A stretch of DNA of 64,000 nucleotides. It comes from an uncultured Opitutus sp. Lineage in GTDB: Bacteria; Verrucomicrobiota; Verrucomicrobiia; Opitutales; Opitutaceae. The stretch spans positions 156,412 through 220,411 of the forward strand of contig CAYZPV010000003.1 of NCBI GenBank assembly GCA_964480585.1, read 5' to 3'. Shown here in pieces: positions 12,106-39,504 of the stretch; the stretch's first letter is position 1, and every line of letters begins with the position of its first letter. The notes under the pieces were generated by a model that was not told the origin of the DNA, did no database searches, and saw nothing but the letters and a program-made list of their open reading frames with translations. A program made the translations under genes and the position numbers.

Positions 12106-12151
12106 GGGGTGCTGGGGCCCGGGGTGAATTTATGATGGGGATGCCGCCTGC

Positions 12152-13234: not shown

Positions 13235-13298
13235 GACTCGGAGAGCGAAGTTAGGAGATCGGGGTGAGGCTATCGGTGGGGAGAGGTGGGGAGTGTCC

Positions 13299-15065: not shown

Positions 15066-15080
15066 TGGGGCCTGTCTGGC

Positions 15081-22459: not shown

Positions 22460-22703
22460 CTGTGCGCACGGTGCCGAGCCCGCCCCTGCCGTCGCAACGG
22501 CTGGACGTGCCGGACAGTCGGGAGTATTCGCAATCTTCGGACCCGTTTGGTGCACGCCCTCATCCCATGCCCCGCCCCGCGAATGTCCAGCCGCCAGCAT
22601 GGCGTAAATTCGGCTTCCCGCGCGATTTGACGCCCACGCCGGGAGCGCCATTCTCGCATGCGCGCTTACCGCGTATCCTCATTACCCCTACCGTCTTCTC
22701 CCC

Positions 22704-23645
22704 ATGCGCCTTCTCCGTCCCTTTCTGCTCTGCCTCGTCACTGTCTTCTCCTCCTTAGGCCTCCAGGCCAGCGGAAAAAAAGTACTGCTCATCGCTGGGT
22801 TGCCCAGCCACGGCCCCGGCGCCCACGAGCACAACGCAGGCGTGCTCCTCCTGCAAAAATGCCTTGCTTCTGTCCCCGGACTCGAGGTGCAGGTCGCCCT
22901 AAATGGCTGGCCGCTCCAGCCCGATGCCTTCGCCGGCGTCGCCGCTGTGGTCATCTACTGCGACGGGGGCGCGCGCCATCTCGCCATCCAACCGGGCAAT
23001 CGCGAGGCGCTCCGCGCCGTCCTTGCCAAGGGCACGGGGCTCGGCCTCCTCCACTACGCCGTCGAGCCCACGCTCGAAAACGGTCAGCTCGATTTCCTCG
23101 CCTGGGTCGGTGGCGCTTTCGAGATCAACTGGTCGGTGAATCCTCATTGGGACGCCGACTTCAAGGAATTGCCTACCCACCCCATCACCCGCGGCGTGGC
23201 CCCGTTCAAGCTCCTCGACGAATGGTATTTCAACATGCGCTTCGTCGCAGGGAAAAAAGGCCTCACGCCCATTCTCGTCGCCACCCCCGATCCTACCGAC
23301 CGCCGTATCACCTCCCGGCGCGATGGCCCGCATCAGGGCAATCCCACCATGCGCGAGCAGGTCGCTCGACGCGACCCGCAGACGGTCGCCTGGGCCTACG
23401 AGCGCACCGATGGCAGCGGAGGCCGCGGCTTCGGCTTTACCGGCGGCCATTATCACAAGAACTGGGGCAATGAAAACTTCCGCCGCATCGCGCTGAACGC
23501 GATCCTTTGGTTGGCCAAGATCGACGTCCCGGCTGGCGGCGTCCAATCGACGGTGACCGACCAGGATCTCGCCGCCAATCTCGACGCCGTGAACCCCGAA
23601 ACTGGCCGCAAAATCATGCCGGGCGAGGGTGTGAAAAGTCGGTAG
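22704..23645 (+). CDS. ThuA-like (class I glutamine-amidotransferase fold) secreted protein
   Basis: Signal peptide, then LLIAGLPSHGPGAHEHNAG, GLLHYA, HPITRGV, DEWYFNMRF, VAWAYER...GRGFGFTGGHYH. Confidence 0.78.
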   Translation: MRLLRPFLLCLVTVFSSLGLQASGKKVLLIAGLPSHGPGAHEHNAGVLLLQKCLASVPGLEVQVALNGWPLQPDAFAGVAAVVIYCDGGARHLAIQPGNREALRAVLAKGTGLGLLHYAVEPTLENGQLDFLAWVGGAFEINWSVNPHWDADFKELPTHPITRGVAPFKLLDEWYFNMRFVAGKKGLTPILVATPDPTDRRITSRRDGPHQGNPTMREQVARRDPQTVAWAYERTDGSGGRGFGFTGGHYHKNWGNENFRRIALNAILWLAKIDVPAGGVQSTVTDQDLAANLDAVNPETGRKIMPGEGVKSR

Positions 23646-23909: not shown

Positions 23910-25895
23910 ATGTCCCAGTCCACCGATGCCGCGCACGCCACGAGGAAGAATATCATCCTCATTATCACCGATCAGCAGCGCACCACGCAGTGGTTTCCGC
24001 CCCACTGGGAGGAGACTCACCTGCGGGCGATGACCTTCCTCAAGAAGCATGGCATCACCTTCAACGAGTCCGTCTGCAATACCTGCGCTTGCACGCCCTC
24101 CCGCACCACGATCTTCACCGGCACATACCCCACGCGCAACTTCTCCAACTTCACCCTCACCGAGTTCTATCAGCCCACGCGCGGGACTACCGCTGCACCC
24201 TATAATATCCCGATGTACGAGGTGCCGCCCGGCCAGTTGCCGCCCGGCCCCTTCCCTCAGCCCCTCTCCTCCAGCGAGAACGAGCTCGATCAGACCCTGC
24301 CCAACCTCGCGACCATCCTGGCCGAGGCTGGCTACGAAACCTTCTACAAAGGCAAGTTTCACCTCAGCAAAGGGGTGCTGGGCTACGACAATAACTACTA
24401 CAGCGCCGACATCACCCGCTACGGCTTTCACCAATGGGATGCGCCCGATGCCGGCCAGGATGCCCAGATCGAGAACTACGGCGGCGGCACCGCCGACAAC
24501 GACAGCCGCTATCTCTCCGATGCCGTCGCCTTCTTGAAGGAACGGCGCGATCACCCGGAAAAGTACCCCAAGCCTTTCTGCCTCGTATTCTCGCTGATTA
24601 ATCCGCACGACGTGCTCGGCTACCCGATGAACTGGGCCGGCCCGCTCGATAATGGTGGGTACGACAAAAACGACCTGCAGGGGAATATCCGCACGCCGGC
24701 CACCGAATCGGAGAATCTCGACGCCAACTTCAAACCCACCTGCCAGAACCAGTGGCTGAACCTGATGAACTCGCAGGGCGCGCTCACGCGTGACCAGCCC
24801 GCTCACTATATAAACTTCTACGGCAATCTCCTGCAGAAGGTGGATGAGCAGATCATGCAGTTGCTCGATATCCTCATCGCGCCAGAGGGCTCTGCCCTTT
24901 GGAAAAACTCGGTGATCATCCGCACCTCCGATCACGGCGAGATGGGCCTCACGCACGGGGGCCAGCGGCAGAAGTGGTTTAACGTCTATGAAGAAAGCAT
25001 CAAGGTGCCCCTCGTCTGGTCCAATCCGGAGCTGTTTCCCCATAAGGTAGAGTCCAACGCGCTCGTCTCGCTCGTCGATCTGCTGCCCACGCTCGCTTCG
25101 TTCTGCGGCGTCCCCGATCCCAGCCGCTTCGGCATGCAGGGCGTCGACTACTCCCCGCTATTTACGCATCCAGACGGGCGAGTGCAGGACTACACCTACT
25201 TTATCAATACCGACATCAAGGCTGGTCAGGGTATCCCCGAGGCCACGCTCCCGCCCAATAACATCGCGATGATCCGCGACACCCGGTACAAATACGCTCA
25301 GTACTACGGCGGCGTAGACCCGGCGCTCCCGGTGCAGAAACAGGAAGAGTTCTACAACCTGGCTGCGGATGTCGATGCCTCCACGGGAAAGCCGCTCGAG
25401 TTGCACAACAAATCGCACTGGGCCGTCGACCAAGGCGCACCCTGGACGATCACCGACGGCGAGAAACAAGTGCGCAGCGAACTGCAGGCGCGGCTCGCCC
25501 GCTCGTTAAACGGCGGCGTCCTCACCGAGCAGACCAGGATCATTCCCCCCGTGCCCATGCGACCTCGCGCCAAGACCGTCCGCAGCGCGTGGGGCCCGAT
25601 CCTCGTCAAAGGCCATACTGCCGAGGTGTATCAGATCATCATCTACTCCCAGCGGGGCTACTCCTACACGCTCGAAAGCTCAGCTCACGGCGCTTGGTCT
25701 CCCGTGCCGGATACCACTCACTCCGCCGCGACGCTCGGCTCGATCCCCACGACGCTGCTCGGCAACGGCGGCCCGCTCTTGTTCCAGCCCCAGCCCACTC
25801 AAGCGAGTCGCCCAGCCTATCGCGTCGCCCGCACCAGCCCACGCGGTGAGCTCAGCCACGAGAACGTGGTGTGGGAAGACTACACGTCCGCATGA
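23910..25895 (+). CDS. Formylglycine-dependent sulfatase with no signal peptide and a C-terminal extra domain
   Basis: NIILIITDQQR, CTPSRTTIFTG, GYETFYKGKFHL, SLINPHD and TSDHGEMG; ~115-aa C-terminal extension. Confidence 0.85.
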   Translation: MSQSTDAAHATRKNIILIITDQQRTTQWFPPHWEETHLRAMTFLKKHGITFNESVCNTCACTPSRTTIFTGTYPTRNFSNFTLTEFYQPTRGTTAAPYNIPMYEVPPGQLPPGPFPQPLSSSENELDQTLPNLATILAEAGYETFYKGKFHLSKGVLGYDNNYYSADITRYGFHQWDAPDAGQDAQIENYGGGTADNDSRYLSDAVAFLKERRDHPEKYPKPFCLVFSLINPHDVLGYPMNWAGPLDNGGYDKNDLQGNIRTPATESENLDANFKPTCQNQWLNLMNSQGALTRDQPAHYINFYGNLLQKVDEQIMQLLDILIAPEGSALWKNSVIIRTSDHGEMGLTHGGQRQKWFNVYEESIKVPLVWSNPELFPHKVESNALVSLVDLLPTLASFCGVPDPSRFGMQGVDYSPLFTHPDGRVQDYTYFINTDIKAGQGIPEATLPPNNIAMIRDTRYKYAQYYGGVDPALPVQKQEEFYNLAADVDASTGKPLELHNKSHWAVDQGAPWTITDGEKQVRSELQARLARSLNGGVLTEQTRIIPPVPMRPRAKTVRSAWGPILVKGHTAEVYQIIIYSQRGYSYTLESSAHGAWSPVPDTTHSAATLGSIPTTLLGNGGPLLFQPQPTQASRPAYRVARTSPRGELSHENVVWEDYTSA

Positions 25896-25916: not shown

Positions 25917-27380
25917 CTAGGGCACGGGCAGGCGGGCGCTCACCGACGTCAGGTACGCGTCCAACTGCGCGGCAAGTTCCTGGCGCTTTTTCGGCTCAGT
26001 TTTGGCGAGATCGGTCTGCTCGCTCGGGTCACGCTCCAGGTGATAGAGTTCCTCCCGGCCGTCTTCGTGAAAGCGGATCAGCTTGTGGCTGCCGGCACGG
26101 ATCGCCGTTTGCGGTAGCGTCTTGCTCACCGCAAAGTCGTCTACGCCGATGCCGTCGCGCGCCTTGGCGTAGCCGGTTTCGGGATGGTAGTAAGGGAAGT
26201 GCCACACCAGCGGCTGCGTGCGCGTCACCCCGGTGGCCTTCCCTAGCCACAGCGGGGAGACATCCACGCCGTCGCGCGGGATCTTCGTGTCCATCGGCGC
26301 ACCCGCGATGGCAGCCAGCGTCGGAAAGAGATCAGCCCCGACGACCGGCGTCAGGCAGGAAGAGTTCGCCGGCACTCTGCCCGGCCAGCGTACGAGCAAA
26401 GGCACCCGGATGCCGCCTTCATAAACGTTCCACTTGCTCCCGCGCGCGGGTCCATTGGCGGAGTACTCGGGATGGCCGCCGTTGTCGGAGGTGAAGATCA
26501 CGATCGTGTTGTCGGCCAAGCCTTGATCATCGAGAGCCTGCAGGACTCGGCCGACCAGATGATCGAGCGTCTCCACCATGGCGCCGAAAGCTGCACGGCC
26601 CTCGCCTGCATCCCGCGGCAGACGCTGGCGATACTTCTCGACCAGCCATTGGGCGCGCGAGCGCACCGGGGTGTGCACGTAGTAGTGCGAGAGCACCATG
26701 AAGAAGGGTTCGCTTTTGCGGCGCTGGATAAAGTCGATGGCATTGTCCGTCAGCGCATCCGCGCCGTACTCGCCCCGCGGATACGGCGGGCGCTCGGTCT
26801 TTTCGCCTTTTCCTTTTTTGGCCCCTTCGGGAGAGCGCTCGCTGTAGGGGTGGCTGCCAAACTCGCTGTCGCCTTCCGCAAAGCCCTGCTGGAAGGGCCC
26901 GTGCGTATTCGACCAACCGAGGTAGCCTCCGGTGTGCTGGCTCACATGCCACTTGCCATAATAGCCAGTGCGGTAGCCGGCCTGGCCGAGCATCTCGCCC
27001 AGCGTCACTTCCTCGAGAGGAAGGTTGAGCGGGTACTCTGGCACTGCCATCGGGCGGGCTTCGACCTTGGCCCCCGGCTCCTTGGTCACAAACTCAAAGT
27101 GCAGCCGTGCTGGCGACCGACCCGTCAACAACGCCACGCGCGAGGCCGAGCAGATCGGCGCGGAGGCGTAGGCCTGGGTGAACCGCATCCCCTGTGCTGC
27201 CAGGCGGTCGAGATTGGGCGTGTCGTGCCACGCATTACCGTACGTCCGCAGGTCGTGCCAGCTGAGGTCGTCGGCGAGGATAAAGACGATGTTTGGTCGC
27301 TTGGCTGACCCCGCCGCCAATGCGCGGGCACCGACAAACGCGAGGAAGACAAGACAGATACGAAGTAGCGAGGAGGCCAT
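25917..27380 (-). CDS. Secreted arylsulfatase-type sulfatase with a CxAxR motif
   Basis: Signal peptide MASSLLRICLVFLAFVGARALAA, then RPNIVFILADD, CSASRVALLTG, GYYGKWHV and FTSDNGG. Start set at ATG 27380. Confidence 0.9.
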   Translation of the reverse strand: MASSLLRICLVFLAFVGARALAAGSAKRPNIVFILADDLSWHDLRTYGNAWHDTPNLDRLAAQGMRFTQAYASAPICSASRVALLTGRSPARLHFEFVTKEPGAKVEARPMAVPEYPLNLPLEEVTLGEMLGQAGYRTGYYGKWHVSQHTGGYLGWSNTHGPFQQGFAEGDSEFGSHPYSERSPEGAKKGKGEKTERPPYPRGEYGADALTDNAIDFIQRRKSEPFFMVLSHYYVHTPVRSRAQWLVEKYRQRLPRDAGEGRAAFGAMVETLDHLVGRVLQALDDQGLADNTIVIFTSDNGGHPEYSANGPARGSKWNVYEGGIRVPLLVRWPGRVPANSSCLTPVVGADLFPTLAAIAGAPMDTKIPRDGVDVSPLWLGKATGVTRTQPLVWHFPYYHPETGYAKARDGIGVDDFAVSKTLPQTAIRAGSHKLIRFHEDGREELYHLERDPSEQTDLAKTEPKKRQELAAQLDAYLTSVSARLPVP

Positions 27381-27397
27381 GCGCGCAGCGAGATTGC

Positions 27398-28879
27398 TTA
27401 TCGATTGAGGGAAGTCACGGCCGACCAGCGGCCGCTGGCCGCGGCCAGTTCGTGAGCCCGTTGCGCGAGTGGCGCCATCCGCTCGGCGTAAGCCGGATCT
27501 TGGACGCGATTGCGCGACTCGGAGGCATCGAGCCGGTGGTCGTAAAGTTCGCGCGCAGCGACGGCACCGGTCTTGAGATCGCGCCACTCGACGTAGCGCA
27601 GTTCGGCGCTCCGCACCGAGTAGCCCATGTGCGTGGCGTTGCCATAGGAGGGATGAGGATGCTGCGAGATCGCATAGGTCTTGCCCGGCTGCGCAGGGTC
27701 GCGCAGCAGCGGCACGAAGCTCCGGCCCTCCACGCCTGCCGCAGCGGGCAGGCCACAAAGCTCTGCCAGACTTGGATAGACGTCGAGCAGTTCCACGAGC
27801 CCCAAGGCGCGTCTGCCGCCTGCGATACCCGGCGCGGCGACGAGGAGCGGCACACGCGTATCCAGTTCGTAGTTGGTCGTCTTGCCCCATAGATTGTGCT
27901 CCCCGAGGTGAAAGCCGTGGTCGCTCCAGAAAATGATCACGGTGTCCTTGGAGAGGTCTAGCCGGTCCAACTCCGCCAGCACTCGGCCCACCTGCGCGTC
28001 GAGGAAGCTGATGCTCGCGAGATAGCCGTGACGCAGCTCGGCGATCAACGCCTGAGAGAGTGGGCCGTTTTTCGGGATGCCTCGGTAGCCGCGAAGCTCG
28101 TTCCAAAGGTGCCCCGCGATCGCTGGCGCACCCTCCGGCATCGCGGCGGGCGATGGCGACTCAAGCGCAGCACGGTCGTAAAGATCCCAGTATTTTTTGG
28201 GCGCATTAAACGGCAGGTGCGGCTTCCAAAAGCCGACCGCCAGAAAGAAGGGTTCTTTCCCGCCCGCCAGCGCGCGGAGTTTCTCACATGCGGCGGTGGC
28301 GATCTTGCCGTCGAAGTACGCATCGTCGGGCACGTCGAGACATTGCACGGCCTCGCCTTTCACGGTGGGGCCCGAGGGGGAACCGGGCACCACCCAATCC
28401 TGCCAGTGCGCGCCATCGGAAAACACCGGCGCCTCCGACCACGAGCGCGGATCGCTAAACGGCACCGGCGGGCGCGCGCCAGACTCGTTGTGAAAAATCT
28501 TGCCGATGCCGATCGCAGTATAGCCCTGCTGCTTGAAGTGCTGGGGGAGCGTCACCACCTCGGGCAAGTGCTGGCGGAAATGGGTGCGCAGGTCCCAAAC
28601 TTTGAGCGTATCGGGACGTCGGCCGGTCATGATCGAGGCGCGGGATGGATTGCACACAGCCTGCTGGCAGTAGGCGCGCTCGAAGAGCACGCCACGACGC
28701 GCCAGCGCATCGAGAGCGGGCGTCTTTGCCACGGCCGAGCCGTAGCTGCCTAGATCCGTGCGAAGATCGTCGGCGGCGATAAAAAGAACGTTGGGCCGCT
28801 TGGCCGGAGCGGCGGTAGACACGGCCGCTCCGGTCAGGACACTCAGGCAGCACGCGAGCGTACGAAGGATCGCCTTCAT
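27398..28879 (-). CDS. Secreted iduronate-2-sulfatase-like sulfatase
   Basis: Signal peptide, RPNVLFIAADDLR, CNPSRASIMTG, GKIFH, LAVGFWKPHLPF, WSDHGFHLGEH and ELYDH..D..E..N. Confidence 0.9.
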   Translation of the reverse strand: MKAILRTLACCLSVLTGAAVSTAAPAKRPNVLFIAADDLRTDLGSYGSAVAKTPALDALARRGVLFERAYCQQAVCNPSRASIMTGRRPDTLKVWDLRTHFRQHLPEVVTLPQHFKQQGYTAIGIGKIFHNESGARPPVPFSDPRSWSEAPVFSDGAHWQDWVVPGSPSGPTVKGEAVQCLDVPDDAYFDGKIATAACEKLRALAGGKEPFFLAVGFWKPHLPFNAPKKYWDLYDRAALESPSPAAMPEGAPAIAGHLWNELRGYRGIPKNGPLSQALIAELRHGYLASISFLDAQVGRVLAELDRLDLSKDTVIIFWSDHGFHLGEHNLWGKTTNYELDTRVPLLVAAPGIAGGRRALGLVELLDVYPSLAELCGLPAAAGVEGRSFVPLLRDPAQPGKTYAISQHPHPSYGNATHMGYSVRSAELRYVEWRDLKTGAVAARELYDHRLDASESRNRVQDPAYAERMAPLAQRAHELAAASGRWSAVTSLNR

Positions 28880-30402
28880 GGTTTAGACTTCAACTGGGCG
28901 AGGACTGGATCGCCGAGTTCCTCCATTTTGGCGCGAATCTTCGTATCGAGAGTCGCGATGGCCTTGCGCACCGCAGGATCGCTCGTCTCGCCAATCCGAT
29001 TTCTGGATTCCGCGGGGTCATTGCGGAGGTCGTACAATTCGTCTCTGTCAGGATTTAGGAAATCGCGCACCAGCTTCCAGTCCGCGGTGCGATAGGCACG
29101 CATATCCGTCTGGCAATAGATGCGCATGCTATACTCGGCATAGAAGTCGTTGTCCCAGCCCACCTTTTCGCCGCGAAGCAAGGGCAGCGCATTGCGCCCG
29201 CGGAGCGTGACTCCATCTGGCACGGCGACGCGGGCCATGGCCAGCAGCGTGGGATACCAATCGAGGCTGGAGACGGTCTGCGCGACCACCGTGCCGGGTT
29301 TGATCGTACCGGGCCAGCGCACGAGCGCGGGAACCCTGAGGGAGTGATCGAAGAGATTAGGCCGGTAGCGCGCGGCGATATTGGGCTTGGCGGCGGGCAT
29401 CGTCTTTGTGGCCCAGACACCGTTGCCTTTGTGCCAGATGCCATTGTGGCCCATATTGTACCCATGGTCGGAGCTGAAGATGACCACCGTGTTGGCAGCG
29501 AGTTCGAGCCGCTCGAGCGTGGCGAGCAGTCGGCCGACGTTGCGGTCGATGGCCGTGACGCTCGAGAGATAGTCGCGCATCCTCTTCTTCACGTCGTCTA
29601 CATTGAGATCGGGGTATTCGGGATTGGGTATCGCCATGTCCAAGTCGCGATAGGGCGCAGCATCCTCTGGTGCGACCGGGAGGTAGGCGGTGTGAGGCGC
29701 GCGCAGGCTGAGGAACAGGAAAAAAGGTCGCGATGCGTCCCGCTTTTCCAGGTAGGCCATGGCCTCGCTTGTAAGGATGTCTTCGGTGAGGCCGCTCTCT
29801 CGCCGCTCCACGCCATTGCGTTCGATCATCGGGTCCTTGGTCGAGGTGCCCCCACCCGTCAGCCCTACGAAGTATTCGAAGCCGCGCTTGGTCGGATGGA
29901 AGCGTCGAGCCGGATCCTTTGTCCAGTCGCCCAGATGCCACTTGCCGACGAGGGCAGTGGCATAGCCGGCCTTGGCGAGCAGCTCAGGGAAGAGCACGAA
30001 TCTCGGCTCCAACCCGATGCCGCCGACGGCGGGCGTGTATTCCTTATGACCGGGAGCCGCGATGAAATCCAGGATGCCGACCTCGCTGCCATAGCGACCA
30101 GAGAACAGGGCGGCGCGCGCCGGGCTGCACACGGGGGTCGTCACGAGCGCGTTCTCCAGCCGCGCACCGCCGGCCGCGAGCTTGTCGAGGTGCGGTGTGT
30201 GGGCCTGTGCATTGCCGTAGGAGCCGAGCGTCCACGAAGCTTGGTCGTCGGTGTAGATGAAAAGGATATTCGGCCGCGCGGCCCCTGCCGCAAAACTGGC
30301 GGAGCAGGCGAACACCGCGAGCGCGGCAAACGCTGCCTGCCTGATCAAGCGGAAGGACAGGCCAAGGCCCGGCGGGGTATGGGAGATGACAATCGAGTGC
30401 AT
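28876..30402 (-). CDS. Secreted sulfatase
   Basis: Signal peptide, RPNILFIYTDDQ, CSPARAALFSG, LVGKWHLG and FSSDHGYNMG. ATGA overlap with the next sulfatase. Confidence 0.9.
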   Translation of the reverse strand: MHSIVISHTPPGLGLSFRLIRQAAFAALAVFACSASFAAGAARPNILFIYTDDQASWTLGSYGNAQAHTPHLDKLAAGGARLENALVTTPVCSPARAALFSGRYGSEVGILDFIAAPGHKEYTPAVGGIGLEPRFVLFPELLAKAGYATALVGKWHLGDWTKDPARRFHPTKRGFEYFVGLTGGGTSTKDPMIERNGVERRESGLTEDILTSEAMAYLEKRDASRPFFLFLSLRAPHTAYLPVAPEDAAPYRDLDMAIPNPEYPDLNVDDVKKRMRDYLSSVTAIDRNVGRLLATLERLELAANTVVIFSSDHGYNMGHNGIWHKGNGVWATKTMPAAKPNIAARYRPNLFDHSLRVPALVRWPGTIKPGTVVAQTVSSLDWYPTLLAMARVAVPDGVTLRGRNALPLLRGEKVGWDNDFYAEYSMRIYCQTDMRAYRTADWKLVRDFLNPDRDELYDLRNDPAESRNRIGETSDPAVRKAIATLDTKIRAKMEELGDPVLAQLKSKP

Positions 30403-30413
30403 GGGGCGGAGAC

Positions 30414-33400
30414 TCAGAAGCGACCGCTGACGCTGAAAGTAAGCGTGGTGCCATTCCAGCTATACCGCGAGATCCGGTCGGGGACGGCGCGGTAAAAAAC
30501 GTGCGGCTCGTTGAACGCGTTCATCAGATCCGCGGAAAACTCCAGCCACGGCCGCCATTGGTAGGAGGCGCTGATATTCACCGTCGTGCGCGCCTTCTTG
30601 AACTGAAGCCGAGAGGGATCGGCGGCGTAGGTATCAAGAAACTCGCCGATACGGCTCACGAAGATGCGCGCTCCCAGCCCGCGGTGCTTCCAAAGGAGAC
30701 CGGTATTGAGCGTCTCGGGCACGAAGTCGGCGATCGCATCGGTCGAGCGCGGAGCCGCGTCGCCATAATCTCCAGCAGTCCACAGGCGGGTGTAGTTGGC
30801 GAACATGCCGAGACCCTTCAACGGGCCGGGGAGAAAGCTGAACTGCTGCTGGTAGTTGAATTCGAGGCCATCGATCTTCGCCGAACCGCCATTGAGATTC
30901 GTCGTGATCGCGTAGCCTTCGTAGAGGCCATTGAAGCCGTTACTGTTGCCCGCGCCCACCGTCGCGCCGCGCGCCGAGTAGATGTAGTCACTGATATCCT
31001 TGCGGAAGTAGCCCAGCGCCAACTGACCCACGGGCTCGAAGTAAAACTCCAACGCAGCGTCCCAGTTATTGGAGTATTGCGGGCGCAGCGACGGGTTGTT
31101 GATCGTCACCGTCTGCGCCGTGTCATTGACCGTCTCGAGCGGCAGATAATTCGACATCTGAGGGCGGCCGATGCTCTGCGACCAGCTCAGCCGGGCCTGG
31201 ATGCGGGGATGCAGTCGGTAAACGAGGTGAGCGCTTGGAAACCAATCGGTAAATCCGCCCTCGATACGGCGCGGATTGGCGTAGTCGCGCCGCGCAGAGC
31301 CGACGGGGTCGACGTTGCGCTGCGCCGTAGTCGAAAGCGTACGCGACGCGATATAGCCGAAGCTCTCCACGTCGGTGCGCTCGGCGCGCACACCCCCCAG
31401 CAGGCGCAGTTTGCCGGCACGCGCCTGCGCCTGAAGGTAGCCAGCGCCGATGTTCTCCTCGACGTGGCGGCCGCCCGCGTAGGTGCGCATCTCGGCAAAA
31501 TAGAGGTCTTCGGACCAGCGGGTCGGATTGGCGAGCACATCAGCGTAGACCTTCGTCGCCTCGGCAAACGGCAACTCGCGGCCGCTGCGGCGTTCGTAAG
31601 AACTCAGGCCGCCCGGTTCAGCGAAGATCGAGAGCGGCGCCGTGCCGATGTAGTTGAAGCGACGCTCATCCGTCACCTCCTCCACTCGGAAACTGCGCAT
31701 GTTAAAGCCAGTCTTCAGCACCGTCTCGATGGACGTAGGGAGGTTGTAGCTCGCGTTGCCCTTCACCGTGAGGTTGCGGGAGTTTCGCTCACTGCTCTCG
31801 CGGAAGAACAACTGGCCGGAGCGATAGTTGGCTCCGTCGTAGATGCTCGGCCCTGAGGTCTGGGTGAAGACGGGGTTCACATCGGAGCTACGGCGATCGA
31901 TCGTCCAGCCCACGCCGGTGATCGTCGTCGTGAACTCGCCGCCTGGCGCCTCGGAGTCGCGGCCATTGCCGCGATCCACGTTGCTGTGATTGTAGTTGGC
32001 CTCGTAGTCGATTTTCCAGCGCCCGAGCGTATGCTCGGCCCCCGCATTGAACTGCAAGCCATCGTCGAGAAAGCCGGAAGGGAGGTTTTGGGACAGGAGT
32101 GTGACGGTGGAGGCGGCGACGTTGCGCACGGTCGTCAGGTCGTCCGTATAGTTGGGGAGGATTGCGCCTGTGCCGGTGGGCTGCCCATTGGCATCGAGCG
32201 CGGCGAGGGTGCGCCCAGTGAACGCGCGAAAGACATTCTGCCGGTTGTAGCGGGTGCCGCCGCCGATATAGAGCGCATTGACGTGCACCTTGGTGCGCTC
32301 CGAGGCCTGCCATTCCACCTTGGCGCCGACGCTGCGCTGGTTGCGGTTTACCAGGACATCTGACTCGCGAAAATCCCATACGTAGGTCGGCGAAGCCGTG
32401 GAGAAAGCGAAGTCGCGGATACCAAGGGAGTAGCCCGCCACGTTGTCGCTCGCAAAGGCGGTGAGAGAGACGCCGAGATTGCGCTTACCGCCGAAGGCAT
32501 CGAAGACCTCTTGGTAGCCCACGTTCACCAACGGATGAGCCGGCTTTTCCCGGCGCAGCGGGATATGGTCGTAGAAGGCAGGCGCCCAGCGCGCGGCGGC
32601 ACGGTAGGTAAACTGGCGCTTGCCCTTCAGGTTGAGCGGCGACCGGGTCTTCAGATTAATCGCACCACCCAGGCCATCAGCGCCCATTTCCGGGGTGAGG
32701 GCTTTGACGACCTCGATCTCGCCGAAGAGAGCGCTCGAAAGATTGTTGGTGCGAAACTCGCGCGAGAAACCGTTGTTGGACGCCATCGGGCTGCCGTCGA
32801 CCATGCCGGAATTGAGCGCCGAAGGGATGCCCCGGATCATGACGTTCTGCACGTTCTCCTGGTCGTCGATGCTGCCGGCCACGCCCGGAAGACGCATCGC
32901 GAGCTCGCCGACGCTGTCATTGGGCAGGCTGCCGTAAGCGTCCATCGAGACCACGTTCTTCACATTTACCGCATTGCGTTGCGCAGTGAGCGAGGCGGCG
33001 TTGCCCTCGCGCTCGCTCGCGACGACGAATTTGGTGAGTTGATACACCTCCGAATCCATCTCGAAGGCCTGCCGCACGGAGGCGCCGCCCTCGATCACAA
33101 CCTGCCGGGTAAGCGTATTGAGGCCCAGGTAGGAAGCCTCGACATCGTAGGCGCCTGGAGGCAGGTCGGAAAAGGTGAACTGGCCCCGCTGATCGGTGAG
33201 CGCCTGGCGATCGAGCGCAGCGATGCGGATGAGGACGCCCTCGAGAAACTTCTCGGTGCGCAGGCTACTCACGGTGCCCGAGAGCGAGCCGCGCCGCGCA
33301 TCGGTGAGCGGCACCGGGGCGCTACGGCGCACGCTGAGCGCGCCGGTGGCATCGTCGCGCGCCGCGATGAGGGAGGTGCCTGCAAACATCTGCTGGAGCG

Positions 33401-33650
33401 CCGCCAGCGCGACGAAACGGCCGCGCGCCGCCCGCGTCTGGACGCCACCGACCTCTTCGGCAGAATAGATGAGCTGGGCTCCGGACTGAGCGACGAACTG
33501 CTTGAGGGTGACGAGCGCCTCGCCGGCGGGAATATCATAATCGCGCGCCGCAGAGTCAGCGGCGCAGAGAAGCGACGAGCCGGGCGCGAGCAACACGAGC
33601 GCGACCAGCGCAGCGAGACAACGAAGCGGGGAATAGCGAAAGGTCATCAT
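30414..33650 (-). CDS. TonB-dependent transducer: STN signalling domain, carboxypeptidase-regulatory-like domain, plug and barrel
   Basis: Signal peptide from ATG 33650, YDIPAGEALVTLKQFVAQSGAQLIY (STN-like), GSLSGTV...TDQRGQFTFSDLPPGAY, plug LPNDSVGELAMRLPGV, IEVVKALTPEMGADGLGGAINLKTR, and a C-terminal F (FSVSGRF). Confidence 0.92.
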   Translation of the reverse strand: MMTFRYSPLRCLAALVALVLLAPGSSLLCAADSAARDYDIPAGEALVTLKQFVAQSGAQLIYSAEEVGGVQTRAARGRFVALAALQQMFAGTSLIAARDDATGALSVRRSAPVPLTDARRGSLSGTVSSLRTEKFLEGVLIRIAALDRQALTDQRGQFTFSDLPPGAYDVEASYLGLNTLTRQVVIEGGASVRQAFEMDSEVYQLTKFVVASEREGNAASLTAQRNAVNVKNVVSMDAYGSLPNDSVGELAMRLPGVAGSIDDQENVQNVMIRGIPSALNSGMVDGSPMASNNGFSREFRTNNLSSALFGEIEVVKALTPEMGADGLGGAINLKTRSPLNLKGKRQFTYRAAARWAPAFYDHIPLRREKPAHPLVNVGYQEVFDAFGGKRNLGVSLTAFASDNVAGYSLGIRDFAFSTASPTYVWDFRESDVLVNRNQRSVGAKVEWQASERTKVHVNALYIGGGTRYNRQNVFRAFTGRTLAALDANGQPTGTGAILPNYTDDLTTVRNVAASTVTLLSQNLPSGFLDDGLQFNAGAEHTLGRWKIDYEANYNHSNVDRGNGRDSEAPGGEFTTTITGVGWTIDRRSSDVNPVFTQTSGPSIYDGANYRSGQLFFRESSERNSRNLTVKGNASYNLPTSIETVLKTGFNMRSFRVEEVTDERRFNYIGTAPLSIFAEPGGLSSYERRSGRELPFAEATKVYADVLANPTRWSEDLYFAEMRTYAGGRHVEENIGAGYLQAQARAGKLRLLGGVRAERTDVESFGYIASRTLSTTAQRNVDPVGSARRDYANPRRIEGGFTDWFPSAHLVYRLHPRIQARLSWSQSIGRPQMSNYLPLETVNDTAQTVTINNPSLRPQYSNNWDAALEFYFEPVGQLALGYFRKDISDYIYSARGATVGAGNSNGFNGLYEGYAITTNLNGGSAKIDGLEFNYQQQFSFLPGPLKGLGMFANYTRLWTAGDYGDAAPRSTDAIADFVPETLNTGLLWKHRGLGARIFVSRIGEFLDTYAADPSRLQFKKARTTVNISASYQWRPWLEFSADLMNAFNEPHVFYRAVPDRISRYSWNGTTLTFSVSGRF

Positions 33651-33703
33651 GGAGGGGTTTGCCGGTGAGTTGGCCCCGGCGCTTCCAACCACGAACAGCC
33701 CGC

Positions 33704-33723
33704 GAAAAGTAACTAGGAAAAGT
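33704..33723. promoter_or_regulatory. Direct repeat GAAAAGT-N6-GAAAAGT between fecR and the receptor
   Basis: AT-rich 7-mer at 33704-33710 and 33717-33723, just after the fecR stop and about 55 bp upstream of the receptor start. Confidence 0.3.
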
Positions 33724-34761
33724 TTACGGCGATTTTTCCGTCGCACGCCGCTCGTGCAGGATGGTGGTCTCCCCCGCCCGCTCGACGCTGAGGCCGAAGC
33801 GGAGTTGCAGCAGGCGGATGAAAGTCTCGGGCTCATCCGCGCGGAAACTTCCGCCGAAGCGCCGCGCCGCGAGCGCGGGATCGACGATGCGGATGGGATG
33901 GCGGTTGTACCGATTGAACTCCGCGACGAAGTCGGACAAGGGTGCGGACACCATCTCGATCCGCTTGTCTTGCCAAGCGAGCGCCCGCTCCATTTCGGGA
34001 GGCGGGACGCTGCGCACCGCAGCGCGGCGCACCGCCGCACCCGCCGGCAGCGGAAGCACAGCGCCCTCACCGGCGACGAGCAGCGGAGTCTGCTCCGGGG
34101 CACGCACGTCGAGGAGCGATTCACCTTTCGCAGGATCAGCGATGCTGACCTTGCCCTCGGTAACGAGCACCTCGAGATCGGCCGCGCGCAGCCGCACGTT
34201 AAACGCCGTCCCGACGGCGCGGACGGAGACGCCTCCCGCCTCGACGAAAAACGGCCGCTCCATGCTTTTCGCCACGGTGAAATGCGCCTCGCCGCGGAGC
34301 AGCCGCACGCGGCGCTCGCGCGGCGTGTACGCGACGTGGATAGCGCTGTCGGTATTGACGCGCACAATCGACCCATCGGGCAGCGCGATACGGCGAAAGC
34401 CGCCCACCGAGGTGGTGACTGCCTCGGAAAGGCGCGAATCCCCAGGAGCCCAGTACCCGCGGGTGCCATACAATGCGACCAACGCCACGGCTGCCGCTGC
34501 GGCCAGGGGGACCAAGCGCCACCAGCGGCGGGCGCGCGCGGGCCTGGGCGCGAGCGCATCGGGGTCGATCGGGCCGCGCTCAGCCAGCGGCAGCGCGAGG
34601 CGATCCAGGGCCGACCAGGTAGCCTCGAGCTCCGAGAAAGCTGCGGCATGCCGGGGATCTGCGGCGAGCCAGCGCGCGAGCGCCTGCTCCTCAACCGCAG
34701 AGAGACCGGCGTACCGACGCGCAATCCAATCGGCAGCGACTTGATCGATATCCGCGCTCAT
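33724..34761 (-). CDS. FecR-family anti-sigma / sensor
   Basis: AADWIAR...WLAADPRHAAAF, one TM helix, LPDGSIVRVNTDS, LLRGEAHF, VRAVGTAFNVR, LAWQ and FVAEFNRYN. Confidence 0.93.
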   Translation of the reverse strand: MSADIDQVAADWIARRYAGLSAVEEQALARWLAADPRHAAAFSELEATWSALDRLALPLAERGPIDPDALAPRPARARRWWRLVPLAAAAAVALVALYGTRGYWAPGDSRLSEAVTTSVGGFRRIALPDGSIVRVNTDSAIHVAYTPRERRVRLLRGEAHFTVAKSMERPFFVEAGGVSVRAVGTAFNVRLRAADLEVLVTEGKVSIADPAKGESLLDVRAPEQTPLLVAGEGAVLPLPAGAAVRRAAVRSVPPPEMERALAWQDKRIEMVSAPLSDFVAEFNRYNRHPIRIVDPALAARRFGGSFRADEPETFIRLLQLRFGLSVERAGETTILHERRATEKSP

Positions 34762-35300
34762 GGGGCACGCTCCTTCAGCAAGCCGCGAGCACGGAGATAG
34801 CTACGGCATCGGAGGAGGCCAAGCGCGACCTGCGCATTGACAGTATGCTCGGAGATACCCAGCCGCGATGCGACCTCGCGGTGCGGGAGGCCGTACAGCT
34901 TGCAGAGGGTGATGACCTGGCGGCAACGCTCGGGCAGCGCGCCGATGGCCTCACGAAGAAACTCGATATCCTGGGCATGAGCGAGGGCCTCCCCAGTGGC
35001 AGGCCCCTCCTCTACCACGGGTAAGCGCTCGATTTCAGCTATGCCGGTGATGGAGATAATTTTGCTGCGCCGGAAAAGATCACAGGCGGCATTGCGCGCG
35101 GTGCTGAAGAGATAGGGGCGCGCATGCGTGACCTTGCCGGCATGGCGAGCCCGGACCAAACGGGCATACGTCTCCTGGACGAGGTCGTCGACATCGTGGA
35201 GCGAGGGAAACGCCCTGCGCAGATAGGCGCGCAGATCGGGCTCGTGAGGCAGCACTTCGGCGGCAAACCAGCGGGTATGTTCGGAATGGTCGGGGATCAC
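34758..35300 (-). CDS. ECF sigma-70 factor (FecI-like)
   Basis: DVDDLVQETY (region 2), YLFSTARNAACD, ALPERCRQVITLCKLYGLPHREVASRLGISEHTV (region 4). ATGA overlap with fecR. Confidence 0.93.
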   Translation of the reverse strand: MIPDHSEHTRWFAAEVLPHEPDLRAYLRRAFPSLHDVDDLVQETYARLVRARHAGKVTHARPYLFSTARNAACDLFRRSKIISITGIAEIERLPVVEEGPATGEALAHAQDIEFLREAIGALPERCRQVITLCKLYGLPHREVASRLGISEHTVNAQVALGLLRCRSYLRARGLLKERAP

Positions 35301-35722
35301 GGAAGGGGGTTTGGGATTCCGATTCCGGAAGTGGGTAGCTAAATCGTTTTAGGTTTCAAGTCGGAATTGCGGGCGCCAAGTGCGAGGCTCCGGAAGCGGG
35401 AGCCTTCAGACGACCCTACGGGGTGGGTGAGAAAAATTCTCCCGGCTGAGCGCGGGGGATGGCGAAATAACGCGGAAATAGAGGAGAATATTGCGGCGAG
35501 TGACGCATGGGAGCCGGGGAAGTGAGCATGAAGATACGAGGGTTTTTGGGCGACGCGGACGACCAACAAGGTGACTCTAGCGATTTTCGGGCGGGCTGTC
35601 AGGATGGTAGCGGGAGTTTGTTTTCGGCTGGGCTTGCTGGGCGGAAGGGGAATCCTGGCACGCCAATGGAATGGTAGAGCTTGCCAAGCATTTGCGCTTC
35701 GCGCCACGCTGAGGGCGCTGCC

Positions 35723-36373
35723 GTGTCTGCCTCCATCCGCGTTTTCCTCATCGACGATCATCCCATTGTCCGCGCGGGCGCCCGCCTGGCGGTATCGGGC
35801 ATGCCCGGCTTTTCCATTTGTGGAGAGATCGGCACCTCCGTGGGGGCGGCTGAGGCCGCGGCCGCCGCGCAGGCCGACATCGTCGTGCTCGACCTGCTGC
35901 TCGGCACACCGGGGGATGGCCTAGAATTGATCCATGCGGTACGCGCCGCACTGCCCACGGCACGGCTGCTGGTCTTCTCGATGAACTCGGAGGACCTCTT
36001 CGCCCATCGAGCCATTAAGGCTGGCGCCAACGGCTATCTCACCAAGGGCGGAGACCTCTCGGAGCTGCAGGATGCGCTGCGCTGCGTGCAACGCGGAGAA
36101 GTTTATCTTAGCGCGCGACTCAAGGCGCGCACGCCGCTGCGCCAGCCTGAATCCGATACCCGGCTCGCCTCGCTCACGGACCGGGAAATGCAGATCTTTC
36201 TCCTGCTCGGGGCCGGCAAGTCGACGCAGCAGATCGCGGACGAGCTGGGCATCAGCCGCAAGACAGCGTCCGCGCACAGGGAAAATCTGAAGGTGAAGCT
36301 GCGCCTCGCCAGCGCCCCGGAACTCGTGCGCCATGCCGTGGCGTACGTCGTAGGCCAGGGGCGGCCAGCCTGA
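35723..36373 (+). CDS. NarL/LuxR-family response regulator
   Basis: LIDDHPIVRAG, VVLDL (phosphoacceptor Asp), GANGYLTK and LTDREMQIF...IADELGISRKT. Start set at GTG 35723. Confidence 0.9.
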   Translation: MSASIRVFLIDDHPIVRAGARLAVSGMPGFSICGEIGTSVGAAEAAAAAQADIVVLDLLLGTPGDGLELIHAVRAALPTARLLVFSMNSEDLFAHRAIKAGANGYLTKGGDLSELQDALRCVQRGEVYLSARLKARTPLRQPESDTRLASLTDREMQIFLLLGAGKSTQQIADELGISRKTASAHRENLKVKLRLASAPELVRHAVAYVVGQGRPA

Positions 36374-36387
36374 AGCCGCCCTCGCCC

Positions 36388-39300
36388 ATGATGCGCCGGG
36401 TCGTCCTCACGGCACTGCTGGGGGTAGTGTGCGTCGCGGTGCTCCGCTGCGCCGAAATCAACCCCCGCCTCTCCGGCACACCGCTCCTGCGCGTGTGGCA
36501 GGCGGAGGACTACGGCGCATCGCCACTGAACACCCGCCTCCTGATCCATCCCGAGGGACTCATCTACGTCGCGAACGACGATGGGGTGCTGGAGTACGAC
36601 GGCGACCGCTGGCGGCTGCTCGAACTACCGGGAAAGGGCGCAGGCCGGGCGCTCGCGCTCGATAGCACAGGGCGGCTCTGGGTGTTTGGCCACGATGATG
36701 CGGCCTATTTCGAACGCACCGCGATCGGCGAACTGAAAGCGATCTCCGTGATCGAAAAGCTGCCGCCCGAAGCCCGTGCGACCGGGACGATCAACCGAGT
36801 CGCCGTGACTTCCGACGGCATCTACGCGCGCGGCCAGCGACGGCTGATGCTGTTCAAACCCGATGGCACGGTGCAGACCTGGCCAGGGGCATCCCTCTCG
36901 GGGCTGGTGTGGACCGTGGGAGATACTCTTTACGCCGACCTCGACCGCCTCGTGCGCGTGAGTCCCGCAGGGGTGGAGCCCGTGGCATTCGGACCGGAAA
37001 AGAACACCCTCGCGGACGGCATGCGCGTCTTTGCCACGCAACGCGGCGGAGAGCGGGGCGCGCTGCTGCTCACCCAACGCGGGCCGATGCTATGGGAAGG
37101 CCCGGGCACACCCATGCGACCCCTCTCCCCGGAAGCAGCCGCGGCATTTGGCGAAGATCAAGCCAGCGCGGGCGCCTTTTTGGCGGATGGAAGGCTGGCG
37201 CTGGGGACGGAGCGCTCAGGCCTGATGATTTTCACGCGCGAAGGCCACCTCTCCCAGCGACTGGACCGCACGCATGGCCTGCCGGGCAATCGAATCAATG
37301 ACCTCGCACTGGACGGCAGCGGCGGCCTCTGGGCGGCGATGCAGGAGGGCCTGGCGCGCATCGAGATCGATGGCCCCTTCGCGCTCCACGGAGGCCCCCA
37401 AGGCCTGGGCAGCCACGCCCGGCGATTCGCGAGCTGGCGAGGACAGCTCTATCTCTCCACGGCCGAAGGCGTCTCACGACGCGACGCAGCCTCCGGGCGG
37501 TTTCACGCCATCGCGGGCTTCCAAGTCGGGACGAATCGCCCCCTCGTCGTCGGCGAGCGGCTCGTGGCGGCCACACGGGGGCTGCGCGAGATCCTGGCCG
37601 ACGATTCCAGCCGCCCCTGGACGAGCGAGCTGATAGGGCCGATCACGGCGGCTGCGCGCGAGCCAGGTTGGATTTTCGCCGGCTCCTCCTCCGGCCTGTG
37701 GCTGATCAAACCCGCAAAGGGCGGCTGGGAAACGGCAGGCCGGGTGACAGCCGCCAGCGCGGGCATGGACGAACTTCTAGATCGCGGCGACGGCTGGCTG
37801 TGGGGAATCACCCGAGGCGGGGAGATTACACGGACGGACTTTCGCAACGGAGCGCGGCTGGACGCGCCGGTGATGGTTTTCGGACCTGCCGACGGGGTGC
37901 CCGAGGCCGGGCGCAACGACCACGTGCAGCTCGTGACCGTGGGCGAAGACGTGCTAGCCGTAGCCGCCAAGTGGATACGTCGCTTCGAGCCGGGCAGCGG
38001 CCGCTTCGTGCCCGAGCCGAGACTCTCCCTCGACGGCGCACCCGTGCGGGGCGCCCGGCTGGCCGGCCGCAGCGCGAAAGGAGGGGCCTGGCTGCGCCCG
38101 ATCGACCATCCCGCGCGACTGTTGCTCGTGGAGCAGGGAGACGATGGCGGATGGCGGATCACAAGCCGCTCGATCGCGCCTTTCCGGGCCGTGGCGTTCG
38201 ACAGTCTGTACGAGGAGACGGCGACAAACACCCTCTGGCTGGCGGGGCAAGGAGTGCTCGCCTCGCTCGACCTAGGCTGGCAGCCGGCCCGCCCACCCGC
38301 CCAGCCGCGCCTGACAATCCGCCGGGTCGAGAGCGAGACGGGCACTTTGCTCGCAGCCGGGCTGGCCGAAAACAACCGCCTCAATCTGCCGGCCGAGCAA
38401 AACGCCCTGCGGATATCCTTCGCTGCGGCTCATTTTTCCGGGGACTACCGAGGGCGACCCCAGACGCTGTATCGCACCCGGCTCGAAGGCCTCGATCGCG
38501 AGTGGAGCGCGTGGAGCAGCGAAACCCACCGCGACTTCACCAACCTACCCTATCGCCCCCTGCGCTTCCAAGCCCAGGCGCGCGTGCCCGGGCGCGCGGA
38601 CAGCACGGAAGCCAGCCTCGAGCTCACCGTGGACAAACCCTGGTGGCTCACCTCCTGGGCGGTGCTCGGCTACGCCGGCATCCTAGCCAGCGCCACCTAC
38701 GGCGTACTGCGACTGCGAACCCACCAACTTCAGGAGCGCAACGCCCGCCTCGAAGCCATCGTCGCCGCCCGCACCCGCCAACTGGAGCATCTCAATCAGG
38801 AACTGACGGACGCTGTGCGCATCGTCGCCCACGACCTGCGCGGCCCCGTGGCTGGAATCCGCTCGCTGGCCCGCCAACTCCGCGCCACGCCCCACCTGTG
38901 GACCTCGGCAGAAGGCCCCGAATTCATGGGCGAGATAGAGCGCACGAGCGAATCCACGGTGGAGATGATGGCCCGACTCCTGGATCTGCAACGGGCCAGC
39001 GACCGGGTGGCCGGGCTGGCCTTTGTGCCGGTGGAGATAAGCCCCTTGATCGCCGAAGTCTGCCGCCAACTCGAGCCGGCCGCCGCGGCCAAGCGCATCG
39101 CGCTCCAGGTCGACGCCAGGCCCGTGACCCACCTTTCCGACGCGGAGGCGCTGTCGAGCATCGTCAGCAATCTCGTCTCCAACGCGATCAAGTTTACTCC
39201 GGCCGATGGCCGCGGGCTCATCCGCATCACGCTGAAGCGCCAGGGCGATGAACTCATCCTGAGTATCGCCGACAATGGGCCCGGCGTGCGAGAGGAAGAC

Positions 39301-39504
39301 CGCGCGCGCATCTTCGAAAAATTCACACGGGGCACCGCAAAGCCGACTGCGGGAGAAGCAGCGACCGGGCTCGGCCTGCACATCGCCAACAAGCTCGTGG
39401 CCGCACTCCAAGGACGTATCGATATCGTCGATACGCCAGGTGGCGGAGCCACTTTTGTGGTGACGCTCCCACTCCTTTTCGACCCCGCCCCCGGGCGGGC
39501 GTAA
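36388..39504 (+). CDS. Sensor histidine kinase with periplasmic beta-propeller repeats and a Y_Y_Y domain
   Basis: Signal/TM, repeats such as GLPGNRINDLALDGSGGLW, YRTRLEGLDREWS...FTNLPY..LRFQAQAR (Y_Y_Y), TM PWWLT, H-box AHDLRGP, NLVSNAIKFT, DNGPG and GLGLHI. Confidence 0.9.
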   Translation: MMRRVVLTALLGVVCVAVLRCAEINPRLSGTPLLRVWQAEDYGASPLNTRLLIHPEGLIYVANDDGVLEYDGDRWRLLELPGKGAGRALALDSTGRLWVFGHDDAAYFERTAIGELKAISVIEKLPPEARATGTINRVAVTSDGIYARGQRRLMLFKPDGTVQTWPGASLSGLVWTVGDTLYADLDRLVRVSPAGVEPVAFGPEKNTLADGMRVFATQRGGERGALLLTQRGPMLWEGPGTPMRPLSPEAAAAFGEDQASAGAFLADGRLALGTERSGLMIFTREGHLSQRLDRTHGLPGNRINDLALDGSGGLWAAMQEGLARIEIDGPFALHGGPQGLGSHARRFASWRGQLYLSTAEGVSRRDAASGRFHAIAGFQVGTNRPLVVGERLVAATRGLREILADDSSRPWTSELIGPITAAAREPGWIFAGSSSGLWLIKPAKGGWETAGRVTAASAGMDELLDRGDGWLWGITRGGEITRTDFRNGARLDAPVMVFGPADGVPEAGRNDHVQLVTVGEDVLAVAAKWIRRFEPGSGRFVPEPRLSLDGAPVRGARLAGRSAKGGAWLRPIDHPARLLLVEQGDDGGWRITSRSIAPFRAVAFDSLYEETATNTLWLAGQGVLASLDLGWQPARPPAQPRLTIRRVESETGTLLAAGLAENNRLNLPAEQNALRISFAAAHFSGDYRGRPQTLYRTRLEGLDREWSAWSSETHRDFTNLPYRPLRFQAQARVPGRADSTEASLELTVDKPWWLTSWAVLGYAGILASATYGVLRLRTHQLQERNARLEAIVAARTRQLEHLNQELTDAVRIVAHDLRGPVAGIRSLARQLRATPHLWTSAEGPEFMGEIERTSESTVEMMARLLDLQRASDRVAGLAFVPVEISPLIAEVCRQLEPAAAAKRIALQVDARPVTHLSDAEALSSIVSNLVSNAIKFTPADGRGLIRITLKRQGDELILSIADNGPGVREEDRARIFEKFTRGTAKPTAGEAATGLGLHIANKLVAALQGRIDIVDTPGGGATFVVTLPLLFDPAPGRA

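Follow-up and report, generated by a model that had tools for sequence, protein, structure and literature searches.

We analyzed a 64,000-nucleotide stretch of DNA (hereafter, the window; contig C3, positions 156412-220411) from the genome of a freshwater/soil-type member of the Opitutaceae (Verrucomicrobiota; 7.04 Mb, 125 contigs, 98.7% complete). The window carries six minus-strand genes that run from position 35300 to position 25917 and encode, in order, an extracytoplasmic function (ECF) sigma factor, a FecR-type anti-sigma factor, a TonB-dependent receptor and three sulfatases, which we named Sulf1, Sulf2 and Sulf3 (Table 1). An earlier note on this DNA had described them as a single minus-strand run with ATGA overlaps and gaps of 11-73 bp, and this description held when the junctions were re-measured. 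The sigma and FecR genes overlap by ATGA at 34758-34761, as do Sulf1 and Sulf2 at 28876-28879; 73 bp lie between the FecR stop and the receptor start, 11 bp between the receptor stop and the Sulf1 start, and 17 bp between the Sulf2 stop and the Sulf3 start. From the receptor onward, the genes are spaced by 11, -4 and 17 bp, too little to accommodate separate promoters. A simple scan for terminator-like sites found no excess of intrinsic terminators within the six-gene run.

Table 1. Features of the predicted sigma-to-sulfatase operon and its surroundings, in window coordinates.
Feature	Position	Strand	Basis
ECF sigma factor, 180 aa, GTG start	34758-35300	-	Pfam, NCBIfam
FecR-type anti-sigma factor, 345 aa	33724-34761	-	Pfam, NCBIfam
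Candidate ECF-dependent promoter, CTAGTTA-N16-CGTGGT	33688-33716	-	Conserved block in gap
TonB-dependent transducer, 1078 aa	30414-33650	-	Pfam, NCBIfam
STN signaling domain of the transducer, residues 31-115	33306-33560	-	Profile against PDB
Sulf1, S1 formylglycine sulfatase, 508 aa, Sec signal, CSPAR	28876-30402	-	Pfam
Sulf2, S1_7-like sulfatase, 493 aa, Sec signal, CNPSR	27398-28879	-	Nearest structure
Sulf3, S1_16-like sulfatase, 487 aa, Sec signal, CSASR	25917-27380	-	Nearest structure
Sulf4, convergent sulfatase	23910-25895	+	Pfam Sulfatase
Weak sigma-70-like promoter candidate for the sigma-fecR pair, CTGACA-17-TAGAGT	35574-35602	-	Consensus scan only

The sigma factor matched Pfam Sigma70_r2 (E 1.3e-13) and Sigma70_r4_2 (E 1.1e-14) and scored 79.7 bits against TIGR02937, above the cutoff; it is of the ECF type with regions 2 and 4 only, as expected of a Fec-type member. 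The protein encoded next to it is a single-pass anti-sigma, likewise a Fec-type feature, with an N-terminal anti-sigma domain, one transmembrane segment (residues 82-100) and a periplasmic FecR domain. It matched Pfam DUF4880 and FecR, and the FecR model NF007296 aligned to it full-length over residues 9-322. It also contains a Gly-Thr site (AVG/TAFNV, residues 184-185) typical of self-cleaving signaling anti-sigmas; FoxR and FecR cleave themselves at the equivalent site. By domain matches, the Fec-type trio of sigma, FecR and TonB transducer claimed in the earlier note is complete.

The receptor consists of a signal peptide, an STN-like domain (residues ~31-115), a CarboxypepD_reg-like domain (122-210), a TonB-box-like motif (QLTKFVV, residues 204-210), a plug and a barrel, and its Pfam matches were CarbopepD_reg_2, Plug and TonB_dep_Rec_b-barrel. 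It scored above the cutoff only for TIGR01782 (TonB-Xanth-Caul; 366 bits with a cutoff of 310, covering positions 5-868 of the 868 in the model), which is a family of Xanthomonas and Caulobacter glycan transporters. FecA matched the signaling part alone (residues 21-108, E 1.4e-5), and there was no SusC/RagA model among the NCBIfam matches. Judged by these models, the receptor is a carbohydrate-type TonB-Xanth-Caul member and not of the siderophore type.

The Pfam STN match was below threshold; therefore, we built a profile from an alignment of the N-terminal extensions of five FecR-linked paralogs of this genome and searched it against the PDB. The profile matched the signaling domains of PupA (E 1.3e-8), HasR, FemA, PupB, FpvA, FoxA and, weakly, FecA, i.e., seven solved transducer signaling domains with E-values from 1e-8 to 0.07. 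Across the genome, the five FecR-linked receptors that have a clean start call bear ~85 extra N-terminal residues; in two further FecR-linked receptors, the start heuristic chose an internal start. The extra residues are absent from the ~45 unlinked paralogs, in which the signal peptide leads directly into the CarboxypepD_reg domain. On this profile evidence, we regard the N-terminal extension of the receptor as a true signaling domain.

The 73-bp gap between fecR and the receptor gene contains the motif CTAGTTA-N16-CGTGGT, ~38 nt upstream of the receptor start codon. This motif was the sole conserved block when the receptor upstream regions of the window and of the related loci L001, L002, L003 and L021 were aligned, and in its strict form it occurs once in the 7.04-Mb genome. 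Across the 116 loci compared, the motif was present in every locus with a sigma ortholog of at least 71% identity, and there was one other match only. It was retained where the barrel is only 41% identical, and it was absent upstream of the orthologous receptors in L004 and L005, which have a barrel 74% identical to that of the window but neither a signaling domain nor sigma/FecR. That is, the motif tracks the sigma factor and not the barrel, as expected of a cognate promoter, and it is a candidate for the promoter recognized by this sigma. In the sister signaling loci of this genome, the corresponding elements comprise an A/T-rich stretch, a TAxxGG-like -35 element, 14-16 nt and then CGTC, which we take to be the usual shape of ECF promoters. 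Upstream of the sigma gene, the weak sigma-70-like candidate matches the consensus at 9/12 positions and is not conserved in the orthologs. An inverted repeat (CTAAA-ACGA-TTTAG, window 35339-35352, minus strand), which could be an operator, lies ~40-50 nt upstream of the sigma start codon. A generally conserved operator at this site was rejected, as the CTAAA-N4-TTTAG repeat is common to the window and L001 only.

The three sulfatases of the operon and a convergent fourth (Sulf4) all matched Pfam Sulfatase, with E-values from 1e-33 to 1e-61 (Sulf1, E 1.6e-54). Pairwise identity is 23-30% among all four and 27-30% among the operon three; at such low mutual identity, they represent different subfamilies. 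Sulf1, Sulf2 and Sulf3 are all of the Cys type and carry Sec-type signal peptides. They have the fold and the C/S-x-P/A-x-R motif of S1 formylglycine-dependent sulfatases, and the maturation enzyme is present in the genome, where three formylglycine-generating enzyme (FGE) genes lie on contigs C1 and C14. The nearest solved structure of Sulf2 is 6HHM (P18_S1_7, an ulvan xylose-2-sulfatase; 327 bits), and human iduronate-2-sulfatase scored 251 bits; that of Sulf3 is 9FO1, entered as "k-carrageenan sulfatase S1_16" (300 bits). For Sulf1, the nearest was 7STT (PyuS) with a mere 189 bits; the only activity known for PyuS is that of an arylsulfatase acting on artificial substrates. By nearest solved structure, and not by SulfAtlas classification, Sulf2 is S1_7-like and Sulf3 is S1_16-like; Sulf1 fits no subfamily clearly. 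The earlier note had spoken of three secreted sulfatases from visibly different subfamilies: their number and divergence stand, and their location is probably periplasmic rather than secreted. Sulf4, which the note had counted with the locus, is indeed present, with a CTPSR motif, no signal peptide and a C-terminal extension of ~170 aa. No solved relative scored above 59 bits, and no counterpart was found in any related locus. Sulf4 is thus not conserved and probably lies outside the unit; it could be a cytoplasmic enzyme from an uncharacterized sulfatase subfamily.

The order sigma-FecR-receptor-Sulf1-Sulf2 is syntenic in other Opitutaceae genomes, and the arrangement is therefore more than chance; the related loci all come from Opitutaceae/Opitutales, in line with the Opitutae-style origin that had been guessed from the letters. 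In the loci that we call type A (L001 and L002), this order is kept with receptors 75-83% and sulfatases 69-79% identical to those of the window, and L002 carries one more sulfatase, placed between FecR and the receptor. L003, from a related metagenome-assembled genome (MAG), retains the motif, the STN-receptor, Sulf1 and Sulf2 intact, and its sigma gene stops after region 2 (~88 aa; 9560-10010) and fecR is gone; this reflects either a switch in decay or an artefact of the assembly. L005 has the receptor, Sulf1 and Sulf2 but no signaling head; L003 and L005 are both variants of type A. Sigma orthologs are 71-78% identical in L001, L002, L117 and L118, and Sulf1 orthologs (67-79% identical) stand behind the receptor in L001, L002, L003, L005 and L118. 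The flanking genes differ in every genome, and no glycosidase was found among those scanned at the related loci; the core is thus a self-contained module.

In type B loci (L117 and L118, from two genomes of genus g28), the sigma is 71-75% and FecR 49-54% identical to that of the window, and the motif is present. Their receptor is a mosaic. Its STN (54-58%) and CarboxypepD_reg (41-45%) domains are as similar to those of the window as they are in the true orthologs L002 and L003, whereas the plug (59%) and barrel (41%) belong to another paralog; the true orthologs reach 93-98% and 74-85%, respectively. Behind the L118 receptor, an extra sulfatase precedes Sulf1 (78%), a BNR-like propeller and Sulf2 (68%); next come a Sulf3 ortholog split in two (51% and 61%), a DUF3748/PD40 propeller and, last, an esterase. 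In L117, the extra sulfatase is followed by Sulf2 (68%) and Sulf3 (58%) only, and the contig ends ~1 kb beyond. The earlier statement that the locus holds only sulfatases is correct for this genome and does not extend to the locus family, in which type B loci add propellers and an esterase, i.e., glycan-type accessories. Comparison of the two types suggests that the regulatory head and the sulfatase set form a conserved pairing in which the transport barrel has been exchanged, and this is evidence that signaling head and transport barrel are separable modules. We had also considered Sulf3 as a lineage-specific add-on, as it is missing from L001, L002, L003 and L005; the orders Sulf1-Sulf2-Sulf3 in L118 and Sulf2-Sulf3 in L117, behind the same sigma, ruled this out.

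The locus is sparsely distributed. A receptor ortholog was found in 1 of 30 other same-genus species sampled, and among 200 family genomes sigma orthologs of at least 72% identity occurred only in genus g28. Recent horizontal transfer between genera was rejected: the locus proteins are 69-76% identical to those of genome G174, no more similar than the housekeeping proteins GlgC (77-80%) and T2SS ATPase (83-84%). Vertical descent with loss, i.e., patchy retention, is therefore sufficient.

The genome as a whole has the profile of a sulfated-glycan degrader, with ~100 sulfatase genes and ~52 full-length TonB-Xanth-Caul receptors, as well as 21 FecR-domain genes. No SusD (PF07980) match was found across the whole genome, so that the absence of SusD noted earlier for the locus holds genome-wide. 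Approximately 10 FecR genes are followed by a receptor, and among these sister systems only that of the window has sulfatases directly in line. The cargo of five sister systems comprises DUF7133/HEAT/cytochrome c proteins, a xylose-isomerase-like TIM barrel, PSCyt/PSD1, an FAD oxidoreductase and a DegP-like protease.

We consider it fairly probable that the six genes form a Fec-type cell-surface-signaling operon reused for a sulfated organic substrate, of which a sulfated oligosaccharide is the most likely kind, and that they provide substrate-induced uptake and periplasmic desulfation. The outer-membrane transducer would bind the substrate, and its periplasmic signaling domain would then contact the C-terminal periplasmic part of the FecR-like anti-sigma. 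Processing of the anti-sigma would free the ECF sigma, and RNA polymerase carrying this sigma would fire the candidate promoter in the 73-bp gap. Of a ligand-triggered release of this kind, which would involve TonB and regulated proteolysis, the sequences display the Gly-Thr site and the TonB-box-like motif. A single transcript would then encode the transducer and the three periplasmic formylglycine sulfatases; the transducer would import more substrate, and the S1_7-like, the S1_16-like and the third sulfatase, Sulf1, would strip sulfate esters at different positions. The carbon skeleton would be used by generic enzymes and transporters encoded elsewhere. A glycan is suggested as the substrate because Sulf2 and Sulf3 are nearest to carbohydrate sulfatases and because the receptor belongs to TIGR01782 and has a SusC-like CarboxypepD_reg domain. 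The signaling domain, the co-varying motif, the carbohydrate-type receptor and the occurrence of the same sigma with the same sulfatases in a second genus support the sensing and desulfation of a sulfated compound, as the earlier note had proposed; induction and the inducer, promoter recognition by the sigma, co-transcription, the periplasmic location and the substrate class we infer. The locus is best read as a variant of the Bacteroidota sigma/anti-sigma glycan loci that is without SusD and, in this genome, without glycosidases of its own.

Several observations weigh against this interpretation. The Pfam STN score of the receptor is 23 bits, under the gathering score of 28.4 (E 6.8e-5). The strict promoter motif is expected 0.75 times per genome by chance, and the weight of the motif therefore comes from its conservation over approximately six loci of related genomes. 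The sulfatase subfamilies were placed by nearest solved structure alone, with no informative relative for Sulf1. The larger open reading frames (ORFs) from ~13 kb left to 6 kb right of the operon include no glycoside hydrolase, lyase or inner-membrane transporter; the earlier note had likewise seen no glycoside hydrolase, and a carbon-catabolic role is therefore not self-evident. In addition, a sulfatase directly follows only 2 of the 52 family receptors of the genome, so that the receptor-sulfatase arrangement is not a general rule in it. A genome-wide enrichment of sulfatases near receptors was also rejected, since a sulfatase lies within 5 kb of 11 of the 53 receptors, which we estimate to be approximately the chance level for ~100 sulfatases in 7 Mb.

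The lack of a glycosidase or sugar transporter beside the sulfatases could also be explained by sulfur scavenging, in which the receptor imports any sulfate esters and the sulfatases free sulfate for assimilation under sulfate limitation. The operon would then resemble the Pseudomonas ats/sft genes, where growth on sulfate esters requires a TonB-dependent receptor. However, sulfur supply would not need three divergent carbohydrate-type sulfatases, and the genome has ~100 sulfatases; control is through a substrate-sensing transducer and not through a CysB/SftR-type regulator, and the type B loci with the same sigma have propeller and esterase genes. We regard sulfur scavenging as quite unlikely. 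Alternatively, the substrate might be a sulfate ester other than a glycan (for example, sulfated phenolics, steroids, sulfolipids or sulfated peptides), and the operon a system for desulfating small molecules. PyuS as the nearest solved relative of Sulf1 and the absence of a glycosidase from the window are in favor of such a system, but the closest relatives of Sulf2 and Sulf3 are xylose/iduronate-2- and galactose-4-sulfatases, the receptor family and CarboxypepD_reg domain are those of glycan transporters, and related loci carry glycan-type accessories; this explanation is therefore unlikely as well.

A substrate-sensing operon would also be mistaken if the sigma drove the receptor only and the sulfatases were expressed independently, their adjacency having no regulatory meaning. 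The spacing of the genes, the lack of a terminator-like site between them and the conservation of their order in several genomes, even after barrel exchange, make this very unlikely. The homology of the trio to FecI/FecR/FecA and the full-length alignment of the anti-sigma to the FecR model would suit a classical iron/siderophore system that merely adjoins unrelated sulfatase genes. However, the receptor is above the cutoff only for the glycan family and resembles FecA only in its signaling domain; the best Fur box match upstream of the sigma gene (11/19, against a shuffle mean of 10.3) is not above chance, as the earlier note, which saw no Fur box, would lead one to expect; and no periplasmic binding protein or ABC importer was found among the larger ORFs scanned near the operon. 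The sulfatases start 11 bp on and are syntenic across genera, and none of the cargo of the five sister signaling loci scanned is iron-related. An iron system is scarcely credible here, and a Fec-type operon reused for a sulfated oligosaccharide remains the reading that we prefer.

The operon shares with FecI/FecR/FecA signaling (E. coli Fec; Pseudomonas FpvA/FpvR, FoxA/FoxR and PupB/PupR) a translationally coupled sigma and FecR followed by a transducer with an N-terminal signaling domain, a candidate sigma-dependent promoter between fecR and the receptor, and a Gly-Thr site in the anti-sigma. It differs from these systems in its TonB-Xanth-Caul receptor with an extra CarboxypepD_reg domain, in lacking a Fur box and in having three sulfatases in place of an iron ABC importer. 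In the ECF sigma/anti-sigma polysaccharide utilization loci (PULs) of Bacteroidota (e.g., host-glycan loci of B. thetaiotaomicron, some with sulfatases), sigma and anti-sigma likewise accompany a receptor of STN, CarboxypepD_reg-like, plug and barrel domains, with glycan-processing enzymes including sulfatases in the same operon; however, our genome is without SusD, the receptor has no SusC/RagA match, the locus has no glycoside hydrolase, and the phylum is Verrucomicrobiota. The carbohydrate utilization (CUT) loci of Xanthomonas/Caulobacter and the carrageenan/ulvan loci of marine Gammaproteobacteria resemble the operon in combining a receptor with enzymes in the absence of SusD, in TIGR01782 and in sulfatases such as S1_7. 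These loci are mostly under LacI, GntR or AraC-type control and contain glycosidases or lyases, and their receptors are usually without a signaling domain.

Sulfatase-rich "PUL-like" clusters of Verrucomicrobiota (Lentimonas and bloom-associated MAGs; PMC8857213) come from the same phylum and are enriched in S1 sulfatases. In the bloom study, S1_7 and S1_16 sulfatases lie in glycosidase-rich clusters without regulators (PMC8857213); the reports on such clusters center on glycosidase and sulfatase content, and we did not find the trans-envelope signaling trio described in them. In a 2026 review on glycoside transporters, control by ECF sigma and anti-sigma is ascribed to Bacteroidota loci only, and TonB-dependent uptake of glycans to Bacteroidota and Gammaproteobacteria only; Verrucomicrobiota are absent from it. 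Full-text literature searches found no described Verrucomicrobiota locus that combines ECF sigma, anti-sigma, TonB receptor and sulfatases. A design of this kind could be expected as an extension of the Fec-type and Bacteroidota systems already known.

Sulfated polysaccharides make up a large pool of carbon that is degraded slowly, and Verrucomicrobiota rank among its main consumers. The sensing of sulfated substrates by this phylum is essentially undescribed; the searchable papers report sulfatase and glycosidase content and no trans-envelope signaling system. A compact conserved module that ties one sensor-transporter to a fixed sulfatase set and a recognizable promoter offers a route to the inducing sulfated compound and hence to the substrates of sulfatase subfamilies without known function. 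To the earlier note, the present analysis adds the promoter motif, the signaling domain, the same sigma-sulfatase pairing in another genus and evidence that head and barrel are separable.

We further propose, tentatively, that the signaling head (sigma, anti-sigma, promoter and the STN plus CarboxypepD_reg N-terminus) might be a portable cassette that Opitutaceae recombine onto different TonB-dependent barrels while keeping the sulfatase cargo. We hold this to be possible but somewhat doubtful. The g28 head on a 41% identical barrel, the headless orthologous barrels and the vestigial-looking second signal peptides in three paralogs all bear on this idea. If it were true, cell-surface signaling in Verrucomicrobiota would act as a plug-in regulator of glycan uptake without SusD, and the sigma-to-sulfatase module would give a handle on the natural substrates of uncharacterized sulfatase subfamilies. 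The three paralogs are FecR-linked transducers at C72:17097-20711 (plus strand), C6:126030-129614 (minus strand) and C21:58146-61805 (minus strand), in loci L114, L110 and L112, respectively. Each has a linker of ~60 aa between STN and CarboxypepD_reg that ends in a second signal-peptide-like hydrophobic stretch (e.g., "...MKKNPLGVLGAWLALALGAAPAASAA"), which resembles a signal peptide left over from a complete receptor gene to which a signaling cassette was fused. The receptor of the window has no second stretch of this kind.

Divergent from the sigma gene, the plus strand at 35681-39504 encodes a LuxR-type response regulator and a histidine kinase of 1038 aa. A two-tier cascade with this pair was rejected, as the pair does not stand beside the sigma in any orthologous locus, and a regulatory link between the two is not supported by the comparison. 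Beside the sulfatases, at 21056-23645, lie genes for a Gfo/Idh/MocA oxidoreductase (minus strand) and a ThuA-like protein (plus strand), and L062 has a ThuA ortholog (67% identical) close to another receptor. Farther out, the window regions 9212-17222 and 41968-48607 contain three ATPase genes of the type II secretion system (T2SS)/type IV pilus (T4P) type and a T2SS-F gene, together with Rho bearing an N-terminal extension of ~340 aa and a GH114 (PelA-like) gene with TPR proteins beside glgC.

Large DUF7133/HEAT/cytochrome c proteins follow the sulfatases in L001 (16461-19883) and directly follow another FecR-linked transducer of this genome (C30:27873-30941; L109:5873-8941); they are a recurring, uncharacterized cargo of these signaling systems. 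The receptor family is hugely expanded: in species of the same genus, a genome can have as many as 25 or more copies with >40% identity to the receptor of the window, and these often form tandem arrays of three to four (e.g., L030, L040 and L045).

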